Below, piece after piece: positions 2,103 to 7,924 of a stretch of DNA of 11,620 nucleotides. The notes beneath the pieces were generated by a model. It saw nothing but the letters and a program-made list of their open reading frames with translations. It was not told the origin of the DNA and did no database searches. A program made the position numbers and the translations under genes. Origin of the DNA: a virus (Duplodnaviria; Heunggongvirae; Uroviricota; Caudoviricetes); the IMG/VR virus record IMGVR_UViG_2531839468_000021. One strand, given 5' to 3'. How positions within the stretch are numbered: the first letter of the stretch is position 1; each line of letters begins with the position of its first letter.

Positions 2103-2428
2103 AAACCTTCCGCTGGAAAGTGAAACCCGGTATGGATGTGGCTTCGGCCCCTTCCGTAAGAAAGGTGCGCTTTGGTGATGGCTATTCTCAGCGTGCGCCT
2201 GCCGGGCTGAACGCTGACCTGAAAACGTACAGCGTGACGCTTTCTGTTCCCCGCGAGGAGGCCACGGCACTGGAATCGTTTCTGGCTGAGCACGGGGGCT
2301 GGAAGGCCTTTCTGTGGACGCCGCCTTATGGCTATCGGCAGATAAAGGTGACCTGCGCAAAATGGTCGTCGCGGGTCAGTATGTTGCGTGTTGAGTTTAG
2401 CGCAGAGTTTGAACAGGTGGTGAACTGA
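2099..2428 (+). CDS. M: Minor tail protein M (109 aa)
   Basis: MKTFRWKVKPGMDVAS…RVEFSAEFEQVVN is essentially the lambda gpM sequence as I recall it, with the same length. GGAGG at 2088-2092 six nt upstream of ATG 2099. ATGA overlap with the H stop and TGATG overlap with the L start indicate translational coupling. Confidence 0.95.
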   Translation: MKTFRWKVKPGMDVASAPSVRKVRFGDGYSQRAPAGLNADLKTYSVTLSVPREEATALESFLAEHGGWKAFLWTPPYGYRQIKVTCAKWSSRVSMLRVEFSAEFEQVVN

Positions 2429-3125
2429 TGCAGGATATCCGACAGGACACACTGAATGAATGCACCCGTGCGGATCAGTCGGCCAGCGTGGTGCTCTGGG
2501 AAATCGATCTGACAGAGATCGGTGGAGAACGTTATTTTTTCTGTAATGAGCAGAACGAAAAAGGTGAGCCGGTCACCTGGCAGGGGAGACAATATCAGGC
2601 GTATCCCATTCAGGGGAGTGGTTTTGAACTGAATGGCAAAGGCACCAGTACGCGCCCCACGCTGGCAGTCTCTAACCTGTATGGCATGGTCACCGGGATG
2701 ACGGAAGATCTGCAGAGTCTGGTCGGCGGAACGGTGGTCAGGCGTAAGGTTTACGCCCGTTTTCTGGATGCGGTGAACTTCGTCAACGGAAACAGCGACG
2801 CCGATCCGGAGCAGGAGGTGATCAGTCGCTGGCGCATCGAGCAGTGCAGCGAACTGAGCGCGGTGAGTGCCTCTTTGTACTGTCCACGCCGACGGAAACG
2901 GACGGCGCTGTTTTTCCGGGACGTATCATGCTGGCCAACACCTGCACCTGGACCTATCGCGGCGATGAGTGCGGTTATCACGGTCCGGCTGTCGCGGATG
3001 AATATGACCAGCCAACGTCCGATATCACGAAGGATAAATGCAGCAAATGCCTGAGCGGTTGTAAGTTCCGCAATAACGTCGGCAACTTTGGCGGCTTCCT
3101 TTCCATTAACAAACTTTCGCAGTAA
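2428..3125 (+). pseudogene. L: Tail tip protein L (lambda gpL-like), interrupted by an apparent 1-nt deletion in a T run at about 2874-2877; frame-1 ORF 2428..3054 carries the N-terminal 149 aa, then frame-3 ORF 2844..3125 carries the authentic Cys-rich C-terminus
   Basis: N-terminus MQDIRQDTLNECTRADQSASVVLWEIDL… matches lambda gpL. After …SELSAVSAS the frame-1 translation becomes Arg-rich nonsense (LYCPRRRKRTALFF…), while frame 3 continues FVLSTPTETDGAVFPGRIMLANTCTWTYRGDECGY…CSKCLSGCKFRNNVGNFGGFLSINKLSQ, the conserved gpL C-terminal Cys cluster. Adding one T to the TTT at 2874-2876 restores a continuous 232-codon ORF, the lambda gpL length. Confidence 0.85.
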
Positions 3126-3874: not shown

Positions 3875-4413
3875 AAACGGGGGCCGAAGCCATCCGGGCG
3901 CTGGCCATGCAGATCCCGGCGTTTCGTCAGAAGCTGAGCGACGGCTGGTATCAGGTACGCATTGCCGGGCGTGATACAGGTGAAACGGAATTATCAGCCC
4001 GTCTTAATGAACCGCTGGCAAATGGTGCTGTGATCCATATCGTGCCGCGTCTGGCAGGAGCCAAAAGTGGCGGTGTGTTTCAGGCTGTGCTGGGGGCGGC
4101 TGTTATGGCGGTTGCTATATGGATGCCGGGGGTAGGAATTATGGCGAGTAATCTGCTGTTTTCTCTCGGTGCCAGTATGACGCTTGGCGGTGTTGCACAG
4201 ATGCTGGCCCCTAAACCCAAAACCCCCCGCACACAGACAACGGATAACGGCAAACAGAACACCTATTTTTCTTCACTGGATAATATGGTTGCCCAGGGCA
4301 ATGTTCTGCCCGTTCTGTACGGTGAAATGCGCGTGGGATCACGTGTGGTATCTCAGGAGATCAGCACAGCAGACGAAGGGGACGGTGGTCAGGTTGTGGT
4401 GATTGGTCGCTGA
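3772..4413 (+). CDS. I: Tail tip assembly protein I (213 aa)
   Basis: MAATHTLPLASPGMARICLYGDLQRFGRRIDLRVKTGAEAIRAL… with a hydrophobic central segment and conserved C-terminus …NVLPVLYGEMRVGSRVVSQEISTADEGDGGQVVVIGR. GAGAGG at 3755-3760 upstream of ATG 3772. The 60-nt gap to J matches the lambda arrangement. Confidence 0.9.
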   Translation: MAATHTLPLASPGMARICLYGDLQRFGRRIDLRVKTGAEAIRALAMQIPAFRQKLSDGWYQVRIAGRDTGETELSARLNEPLANGAVIHIVPRLAGAKSGGVFQAVLGAAVMAVAIWMPGVGIMASNLLFSLGASMTLGGVAQMLAPKPKTPRTQTTDNGKQNTYFSSLDNMVAQGNVLPVLYGEMRVGSRVVSQEISTADEGDGGQVVVIGR

Positions 4414-4473: not shown

Positions 4474-6441
4474 ATGGGTAAAGGCAGCAGTAAGGGGCAT
4501 ACCCCGCGCGAAGCGAAGGACAACCTGAAGTCCACGCAGTTGCTGAGTGTGATCGATGCCATCAGCGAAGGGCCGGTTGAAGGTCCGGTGGAGGGATTAA
4601 AAAGCGTGCTGCTGAACAGTACGCCGGTGCTGGACAGTGAGGGGAATACCAATATCTCCGGTGTCACGGTGGTTTTCCGGGCAGGTGAGCAGGAGCAGAC
4701 ACCGCCGGAGGGATTTGAATCCTCCGGCTCCGAGACGGTGCTGGGTACGGAAGTGAAGTACGACACGCCGATTACCCGGACCATCACGTCTGCAAACATC
4801 GACCGTCTGCGCTTTACCTTCGGTGTACAGGCACTGGTGGAAACCACCTCAAAGGGTGACCGGAATCCGTCGGAAGTCCGCCTGCTGGTTCAGATACAAC
4901 GTAACGGTGGCTGGGTGACGGAAAAAGACATCACCATTAAGGGCAAAACCACCTCGCAGTATCTGGCCTCGGTGGTGGTGGATAACCTGCCGCCGCGCCC
5001 GTTCAACATCCGGATGCGCAGGATGACGCCGGACAGCACCACAGACCAGCTGCAGAACAAAACGCTCTGGTCGTCATACACTGAAATCATCGATGTGAAA
5101 CAGTGCTACCCGAACACGGCACTGGTCGGCGTGCAGGTGGACTCGGAGCAGTTCGGCAGCCAGCAGGTGAGCCGTAATTATCATCTGCGCGGGCGTATTC
5201 TGCAGGTGCCGTCGAATTATAACCCGCAGACGCGGCAATACAGCGGTATCTGGGACGGAACGTTTAAGCCGGCATACAGCAACAACCCGGCCTGGTGTCT
5301 GTGGGATATGCTGACCCACCCGCGCTACGGCATGGGGAAACGTCTTGGTGCGGCGGATGTGGATAAATGGGCGCTGTATGTCATCGGCCAGTACTGCGAC
5401 CAGTCAGTGCCGGACGGCTTTGGTGGCACGGAGCCGCGCATCACCTGTAATGCGTACCTGACCACACAGCGCAAGGCGTGGGATGTGCTCAGTGATTTCT
5501 GCTCGGCGATGCGCTGTATGCCGGTATGGAACGGGCAGACGCTGACGTTCGTGCAGGACCGACCATCAGATAAGGTATGGACCTATAACCGCAGTAATGT
5601 GGTGATGCCGGATGATGGCGCGCCGTTCCGCTACAGATTCAGCGCCCTGAAGGACCGCCATAATGCCGTTGAGGTGAACTGGATTGACCCGAACAACGGC
5701 TGGGAGACGGCGACAGAGCTTGTTGAAGATACGCGGGCCCTTGCCCGTTACGGTCGTAATGTCACGAAGATGGATGCCTTTGGCTGTACCAGCCGGGGGC
5801 AGGCACACCGCGCCGGGCTGTGGCTGATTAAAACAGAACTGCTGGAAACGCAGACCGTGGACTTCAGCGTGGGGGCCGAAGGGCTTCGCCATGTGCCGGG
5901 CGATGTCATTGAAATCTGCGATGATGACTATGCCGGTATCCGCACCGGCGGGCGCGTGCTGGCGGTAAACAGCCAGACCCGGACGCTGACGCTCGACCGT
6001 GAAATCACGCTGCCATCTTCCGGCACCACGCTGATAAGCCTGGTTGACGGGCAGGGGAGTCCGGTCAGCGTGGAGGTTCAGTCCGTCACCGACGGCGTGA
6101 AGGTGAAAGTGAGCCTGGTTCCTGACGGTGTTGCTGAATACAGCGTGTGGGGGCTGAAGCTGCCGACGCTGCGCCAGCGACTGTTCCGCTGCGTGAGTAT
6201 CCGTGAGAACGACGACGGCACGTATGCCATCACCGCCGTGCAGCATGTGCCGGAAAAAGAGGCCATCGTGGATAACGGGGCGCACTTTGACGGCGACCAG
6301 AGCGGCACGGTGAATGGTGTCACGCCGCCAGCGGTGCAGCACCTGACTGCCGAAGTCACCGCAGACAGCGGGGAGTATCAGGTACTGGCCCGCTGGGACA
6401 CGCCGAAGGTGGTGAAGGGCGTGAGTTTATGCTTCGCCTGA
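4474..6441 (+). CDS. J: Host specificity / central tail fibre protein J, N-terminal 655 aa; ends at a frame break
   Basis: [34 protein letters not shown]… and the following ~650 residues are near-identical to lambda gpJ by recollection. GGAG at 4462-4465 upstream of ATG 4474. The ORF terminates as …[11 protein letters not shown], where lambda gpJ continues. Confidence 0.9.
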
Positions 6442-7868
6442 CCGTGGCAGCGGATGACGGCAGTGAGCGGCTGGTCAGCACGGCCCGGACGACGGAAACC
6501 ACGTACCGCTTCACGCAACTGGCGCTGGGGCGGTACACGCTGACAGTCCGGGCGGTAAATGCGTGGGGACAGCAGGGCGATCCGGCGTCGGTATCGTTCC
6601 GGATTGCCGCACCGGCAGCACCGTCGAGGATTGAGCTGACGCCGGGCTATTTTCAGATAACCGCCACGCCGCATCTTGCCGTTTATGACCCGACGGTACA
6701 GTTTGAGTTCTGGTTCTCGGAAACGCGGATTACCGATATCAGGCAGGTTGAAACCACAGCCCGCTACCTTGGTACGGGACTGTACTGGATAGCCGCCAGT
6801 ATCAATATCAAACCGGGCCATGATTATTACTTTTATATCCGCAGTGTGAACACCGTTGGCAAATCGGCATTCGTGGAGGCCGTCGGTCGGGCGAGCGATG
6901 ATGCGGAAGGTTACCTGGATTTTTTCAAAGGCAAGATAACCGAATCCCATCTCGGTAAAGAGCTGCTGGAAAAAGTCGAGCTGACGGAGGATAACGCCAG
7001 CAAACTGGAGGAGTTTTCGAAAGAGTGGAAAGACGCCAGTGATAAATGGAATGCCATGTGGGGCGTCAAAATTGAGCAGACCAAAGACGGCAAACATTAT
7101 GTCGCGGGTATTGGCCTCAGCATGGAGGACACGGAGGAAGGCAAGCTGAGCCAGTTTCTGGTTGCCGCTAACCGTATCGCGTTTATTGACCCGGCAAACG
7201 GGAATGAAACGCCGATGTTTGTGGCGCAGGGCAACCAGATATTCATGAACGACGTGTTCCTGAAACGCCTGACGGCCCCCACCATTACCAGTGGTGGAAA
7301 TACACCGGTATTTTCCCTGACACCGGACGGGCGGCTGACGGCGAAAAATGCCGATATCAGCGGTAACGTGAATGCGAACTCCGGGACGCTCAACAACGTC
7401 ACGATTAACGAGAACTGTCGGGTTCTGGGAAAATTGTCCGCCAACCAGATTGAAGGCGATCTCGTTAAAACAGTGGGCAAAGCTTTCCCCCGGGACTCCC
7501 GTGCACCGGAGCGGTGGCCATCAGGAACCATTACCGTCAGGGTTTATGACGATCAGCCGTTTGACCGGCAGATTGTTATTCCGGCGGTGGCATTCAGCGG
7601 CGCTAAACATGAGAAAGAGCATACTGATATTTACTCCTCATGCCGTCTGATAGTACGGAAAAACGGTGCTGAAATTTATAACCGTACCGCGCTGGATAAT
7701 ACGCTGATTTACAGTGGTGTTATTGATATGCCTGCCGGTCACGGTCACATGACACTGGAGTTTTCGGTGTCAGCATGGCTGGTAAATAACTGGTATCCCA
7801 CAGCAAGTATCAGCGATTTGCTGGTTGTGGTGATGAAGAAAGCCACCGCAGGCATCAGTATCAGCTGA
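6429..7868 (+). CDS. J: Host specificity protein J, C-terminal 479 aa in frame 3, including a divergent C-terminal receptor-binding region
   Basis: [34 protein letters not shown]… continues the gpJ sequence directly after the break. The combined length (about 1131 codons) matches lambda gpJ. The last ~150 residues (…[24 protein letters not shown]…[10 protein letters not shown]) keep the gpJ C-terminal architecture but differ substantially from the lambda LamB-binding domain. Confidence 0.9.
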
Positions 7869-7886
7869 ATTTTATAACCCATATAC

Positions 7887-7911
7887 GGGCGCCAGAAATG
7901 GCGCCTTTTTT
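7887..7911 (+). terminator. Rho-independent terminator downstream of J
   Basis: GC stem gggcgcc (7887-7893) / ggcgcc (7900-7905) with a 6-nt loop agaaat, followed by tttttt at 7906-7911. Confidence 0.7.
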
Positions 7912-7924
7912 ATTGCAGAAAAGC

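Follow-up and report, generated by a model that had tools for sequence, protein, structure and literature searches.

According to the cryo-EM account of phage lambda (PMC11101478), a trimer of Ig-like receptor-binding domains (RBDs) of gpJ puts four bottom loops into the lumen of LamB. The bottom of the trimer then spreads, the movement is passed up the fibre and the tail opens (PMC11101478). The classic precedent for a change of receptor is phage 434, as exchange of the J C-terminus moves lambda from LamB to OmpC. OmpC is also the receptor of 434 itself and of the phi330/WGPS6 clade (PMC12502783). In the work of Brödel et al. (Nature 2024; PMC11338833), natural gpJ C-termini were fused to lambda gpJ at residue 964, and the chimeras A8 and 1A2 were tested. 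On wild-type LamB+ MG1655, 1A2 particles gave 5.2% delivery at an MOI of 50, and wild-type lambda particles gave 97.7% on those cells. Delivery by 1A2 was 2% on delta-lamB delta-ompC cells with K-12 OmpC and 98.3-98.6% on MG1655 carrying EDL933 OmpC, while 21 of 23 OmpC variants were served by A8, 1A2 or both. All 1A2 experiments were carried out with this chimera, whose body is that of lambda and whose side fibre is engineered, and with no natural phage (PMC11338833). In a follow-up study, 1A2 was used against O157 strains (10.1101/2025.02.28.640725). The structure of the A8 RBD has been solved alone (PDB 9wca) and in complex with the OmpC trimer (PDB 9wcb).

In the DNA analysed here (the window, 11,620 nucleotides), the distal tail genes of a lambdoid prophage lie in the lambda-type gene order H-M-L-K-I-J-lom-stf, beginning with the 3′ part of H and followed after the side tail fibre gene by cargo. 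The 3′ end of its J gene very probably encodes an alternative gpJ RBD allele of the VT1-Sakai/PPompW/1A2 type, with OmpC as receptor, which was recombined onto a lambda/434-type J body. The mosaic structure, domain family, allele identity and prevalence were computed here, and the receptor was taken from the literature.

The window is contained without any change in contig AFDT01000021.1 (positions 56-11675) of the draft assembly GCA_000225085.2. Beyond the window, at contig positions 14069-17923, a PBP-family gene is followed by three genes with the Pfam domains of bioA, bioB and bioF. From its position, the PBP-family gene is taken by us to be ybhB, and the next three are presumably bioA, bioB and bioF themselves. 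On this reading of the gene domains, the right side of the contig is the att-lambda side of the chromosome, and the prophage lies in or close to the region of the lambda attachment site. The region 8600-10184 holds the side tail fibre gene, which encodes a 437-aa protein with phage_tail_N, collagen repeats and Phage_fiber_C, and a following Phage_fiber_C gene of about 270 nt. Both are about 92% identical at the nucleotide level to the corresponding genes of 434, not to those of lambda, and the right arm of the prophage is 434-like. Compared with 434, gene I lacks several short stretches at 4113-4160; these clustered deletions amount to 30 nt in total and keep the frame overall in a locally divergent stretch. 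A 402-aa ORF without Pfam or NCBIfam match occupies 10412-11620 on the minus strand. Other E. coli have it annotated as a hypothetical protein, once adjoining an EspF-repeat effector gene, and DNA similar to this region was found in 1,262 genomes, with 523 of the places on plasmids.

The J gene extends from 4474 to 7868 on the plus strand and is present as two ORFs split by a 1-base deletion (Table 1). A single unbroken J frame of about 1130 codons was not found in the window, as it is broken at this deletion. At the lesion one C has been lost, GAGCTTT having become GAGTTT, and insertion of one base at this point gives an open frame of 1131 codons. When compared with the NCBIfam profile NF049904 (lambda_TipJ), the 5′ ORF covered profile positions 1-651 of 1163 (1471 bits) and the 3′ ORF the contiguous positions 652-1163 (841 bits). 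Each half scores below the full-length cut-off of 1950 bits because the gene is split. Taken together, the halves make up the full profile, and the Pfam series is complete and ordered: hub, FNIII, Ig, tail-tip-fibre and C-terminal RBD.

Table 1. Positions of the J-region features in the window
Feature	Position	Strand	Evidence
5′ ORF of interrupted J (hub domains, FNIII-A, first Ig_J), lambda-type	4474..6441	+	ORF list, NCBIfam, Pfam
1-base deletion shifting the J frame, GAG[C]TTT	6426..6429	+	Alignments against lambda, 434 and the relative L005
3′ ORF of J (Ig_J, Ig_J_second, Phage_Tail_Tip, Ig_GpJ_C)	6429..7868	+	Pfam, NCBIfam, comparison with intact J
Approximate recombination junction, lambda/434-type J body to the left, VT1-Sakai/1A2-type distal end to the right	7290..7310	+	Five-way alignment
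Strongly divergent RBD allele, 1A2/VT1-Sakai type	7419..7868	+	blastn, amino acid identity, Pfam match 7473-7865, allele comparison
Intrinsic terminator hairpin after J	7887..7913	+	Terminator scan, annotated terminator in 434, alignment
lom (Ail/Lom outer-membrane protein), conserved right flank of the cassette	7936..8535	+	Pfam Ail_Lom, E 8e-123

Intact relatives of this J were found. E. coli 200177 has an uninterrupted J of 1131 aa with a lambda-type body about 97% identical to that of the window and an identical RBD, so the hybrid J, a lambda-type body with this RBD, is not unique to the window. The 5′ ORF showed 97% amino acid identity to the J of E. coli 200177, and the 3′ ORF matched an intact J over residues 653-1131 at 97%. 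The missing C is retained in the near-identical relative L005 (GCA_020108905.1), so the lesion is specific to the window's assembly, where it could be real or a sequencing error. Sharing of the frameshift by L005, which has a 479-aa ORF, was considered as a candidate and rejected, since the C is present in L005 in the alignment.

Lesions were also seen in L and H. In L (2428-3054), a -1 frameshift relative to phage 434 lies at 2877 (window 2870-2880), where CTCTTTTG has become CTCTTTG and a run of four T residues is reduced to three. The L ORF stops early at 208 aa with an aberrant tail, and the C-terminal third is lost; insertion of one base restores the full 232-aa L including its Cys-rich C-terminus. 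This change looks like a homopolymer miscall, a typical sequencing error. E. coli DEC9B has an intact 1024-aa H; compared with it, H of the window is interrupted by a TGA in frame at 454-456, followed a few bases on by a 1-base deletion (lesion 454-471), and the downstream ORF restarts at 456.

The three lesions, in H, L and J, suggest a decaying prophage, and if the assembly is accurate, this copy is probably a remnant making no functional tip. In the reference Stx1 prophage VT1-Sakai (Sp15; AP000400.1), J has this RBD allele and also bears the annotation "truncated protein by a mutation", so disrupted J genes with this tip are not rare. That nothing functional is encoded in the window, the RBD sequence being kept simply as raw material for recombination, was given a slightly better than even chance. 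The frameshifts in J and L and the stop with indel in H, seen against intact relatives, and the truncated J of VT1-Sakai speak for it, whereas the draft status of the source assembly, the error-like change in L and an undegraded RBD, 100% identical to that of the plaque-forming phage PhiR5_1, speak against it. This reading concerns the state of the present copy and is compatible with the origin of the allele by exchange of the RBD, for which the evidence was obtained as follows.

To the left of the RBD, J is of lambda type. A blastn comparison with lambda J (NC_001416) returned one alignment with one gap, which covers J nucleotides 1-2945 (window 4474-7418) at 95.35% identity; for the final 450 nt of J, no similarity to lambda J was detectable by blastn. 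When a global DNA alignment of this last segment was forced, the identity to lambda was 57%, and the binomial probability of so few matches at the upstream rate was about 2e-134. At the protein level, identity between the repaired J and lambda gpJ was 96.4% for residues 1-981 and 41.7% for residues 982-1132, the last 151 residues (window 7416-7868). In a finer split, identity was 96.8% for residues 1-945 and 86% for residues 946-981; in successive 50-residue bins toward the C-terminus it was 96, 72, 48, 40 and 31%. With these values, the LamB-specific RBD allele of lambda was not found at residues 982-1132.

The preliminary description of this DNA had placed the change in the same region. It held the first 980 or so residues of J to be near-identical to lambda gpJ and the last 150 or so to be only loosely related, with PFDRQIV and DMPAG(H/R)G retained. 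The identities above agree with both statements, and both motifs are present in the alignments. High identity of the C-terminal domain to lambda gpJ on proper alignment, which would have argued against a swap, was looked for, and the low value given above was obtained. The coordinates 7416-7868 given there fit the strongly divergent core, and the switch in sequence type starts about 110 nt earlier, at about 7309.

The position of this switch comes from a five-way DNA alignment of the window, VT1-Sakai, PhiR5_1, lambda and 434. The window follows lambda/434 up to about 7308 (about alignment column 195), in a part where the J body of VT1-Sakai and PhiR5_1 is of another type. Starting with the conserved TTTTCCCTGACACCGGA, the window matches these two phages almost completely, and the near-identity runs on over the stop codon, the terminator and lom. 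The terminator hairpin after J is common to 434, VT1-Sakai and PhiR5_1 and absent from lambda. Compared with 434, both flanks of the cassette are about 92% identical at the nucleotide level (88-100% in 60-nt bins across lom), whereas the RBD core is 50-78% identical in bins of the same size. The type switch and the near-identical flanks around a divergent core thus define the 3′ end of J as a discrete mosaic cassette with a left junction (Table 1) and a conserved right flank. Such a pattern is that which would be expected of homologous recombination between lambdoid phages. An RBD of 434 type, as are the flanks, was also considered and was rejected on the low identity of the RBD bins and on the placement of 434 in a separate protein clade.

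The divergent segment belongs to the same domain family as the RBDs of known structure. It matched Pfam PF12421 (Ig_GpJ_C) with an E value of 6.8e-38 and 130.2 bits against a gathering cut-off of 26.2; residues 349-479 of the 3′ ORF align to profile positions 1-135 of 135, end to end at the extreme C-terminus of J. It also aligned over its full length to the solved gpJ RBDs 9wca (A8 gpJ713, E 9e-81) and 8xcj (lambda, E 3e-59), and these matches settle the fold of the RBD. A single-sequence AlphaFold2 model of the last 184 residues (mean pLDDT 50.4, pTM 0.42) was too poor for loop mapping or fold search.

Within the family, the allele could be identified. The 453-nt segment showed 98.7% nucleotide identity to VT1-Sakai, to PPompW prophages and to several Stx2a phages, and the RBD protein was 100% identical to that of PhiR5_1, 99.3% (150 of 151 residues) to that of VT1-Sakai and 99.3% to that of PPompW. 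Four clades were distinguished in the protein alignment, with identities to the window taken over the 151-residue query: the window, PhiR5_1 and VT1-Sakai (99-100%); A8 (identical to PhiR30_1), mEp460_4F5 and BP-4795 (59-65%); lambda (42%); and 434 with WGPS6/phi330 (about 40%). The differences between clades cluster in four indel-rich segments between the conserved strands FDRQ, NG..I, DMPxG and V.V.KK, and these segments are taken to be the receptor-contacting loops. The allele was found in 59 phage records and in 3,350 of 5,426 complete E. coli genomes (median 2 copies), and 2,332 records match it at an identity of at least 95%. Many Stx phages and JLK-2012 are among its other natural carriers, and in prophages of E. 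coli it is very common.

For comparison with the tested chimera, the GpJ 1A2 DNA in Supplementary file 1 of PMC11338833, a recoded sequence in a machine-read PDF with dropped bases, was translated in three frames. The translation reproduces the window RBD, with 135 of 151 residues lying in exact shared 5-mers; the gaps fall at PDF reading errors, and the other 16 positions are covered solely indirectly, via VT1-Sakai. The sole clear difference is at the third-last residue, the window ending in AGISIS and 1A2 in AGITIS. As VT1-Sakai shares the ITIS ending, 1A2 would be the VT1-Sakai allele, one residue off that of the window. By near-identity, the window thus carries the OmpC-specific 1A2/VT1-Sakai allele.

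Since this RBD matches the tested 1A2 allele, the delivery data obtained with 1A2 can be carried over by analogy: the receptor of the window allele is most probably OmpC and not LamB, with selectivity among OmpC alleles. The preliminary description had proposed a domain swap away from LamB, and the mosaic cassette, the identity to 1A2 and the transduction data of 1A2 on OmpC and LamB lend this proposal their support. We infer the single S/T difference to be without consequence. PhiR5_1, with an RBD identical to that of the window, is listed with E. coli C as host; in the SNIPE paper, which used the Brenes and Laub panel of PhiR phages, no outer-membrane receptor is given for them.

It was considered improbable that the RBD targets another outer-membrane protein (OmpF, FhuA, BamA or others), or that the S/T change or the native J body alters its specificity relative to 1A2. 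A few point mutations can shift the receptor of gpJ, as reported for lambda (to OmpF) and for phage 21 (to OmpC) (PMC11336670, PMC11101478), and the receptor is known for the 1A2 chimera, one residue off the window sequence. Against this, the S/T change is conservative and lies three residues from the C-terminus, the OmpC-binding A8 has the ISIS ending of the window, and the part swapped in 1A2 (lambda position 965 onward) otherwise matches the window. A related reading, that the natural hybrid, in which a lambda/434-type body bears a 1A2-type tip with the ISIS ending, differs from 1A2 in porin or OmpC-allele specificity, or likewise that expression of the split J continues, for instance through suppression of the frameshift, was considered very improbable. 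It is hardly credible that the domain is a drifted lambda RBD that still recognises LamB: it shares its Pfam family with lambda and keeps the core motifs PFDRQIV, DMPAGxG and the terminal KK..GIS, but the divergence is abrupt, from 95% nucleotide identity to undetectable at the domain boundary, the segment is 98.7% identical to a distinct and widespread allele, and particles with the 1A2 allele fail on LamB+ MG1655 and succeed on delta-lamB cells with EDL933 OmpC (PMC11338833).

With an OmpC-type RBD on a lambda/434-type body as the preferred reading, a sequence of events can be proposed. Homologous recombination in the conserved stretch just upstream of the RBD would have joined the allele to the lambda/434-type J body. 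By analogy with lambda gpJ on LamB and A8 gpJ on OmpC, we infer that the trimeric central fibre ends in three RBDs whose variable bottom loops would enter a trimeric porin at its extracellular mouth, and that this would trigger opening of the tail. The porin for this allele would be OmpC, the EDL933 type and several other variants being accepted and K-12 OmpC not, and LamB would not be used.

Previous publications already describe the allele, where it occurs and which receptor it uses, and the swap is real but ordinary: it is a textbook case of modular exchange of host range among lambdoid phages and opens no new question. The receptor can be assigned from the sequence because the allele was experimentally tested. 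For annotation, the J of the window is to be read as carrying an OmpC-type and not a LamB-type tip, and this is relevant to the use of prophage J tips as parts of engineered delivery particles.

Among the known systems, the lambda gpJ RBD (PDB 8xcj/8xck, LamB-specific) shares with that of the window PF12421, a 96% identical J body and the presumed trigger by loop insertion into a porin; it differs in RBD sequence, where DNA similarity is missing, and in receptor. With A8 gpJ, the domain family, length class, use of OmpC and a C-terminal stretch of 19 residues are common, and identity is about 69% over the last 184 residues and about 62% in the RBD core. The differences from A8 lie in the variable segments, for example a 6-residue longer loop at HENFNSNNQQSYW, and in that A8 accepts K-12 OmpC whereas 1A2 does not (PMC11338833). 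Phage 434 resembles the window in J body, post-J terminator, lom and side tail fibre (about 92% nucleotide identity), but its RBD, like that of WGPS6, belongs to a separate clade with extra loop insertions; identity to the window is about 51% over the 184-residue tail, conserved fibre included, and tblastn gave about 40% to WGPS6 over the 151-residue query. In VT1-Sakai and PhiR5_1 the allele sits on a non-lambda J body, unlike in the window. In construction the J of the window resembles 1A2, whose fusion at lambda residue 964 falls in the same conserved stretch as the natural junction of the window at about residue 946, although the window hybrid is natural and frameshifted and 1A2 is engineered. 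Both the classic lambda h434 host-range hybrid and the 1A2 chimera, the latter made by engineering, have a natural counterpart in the J of the window.
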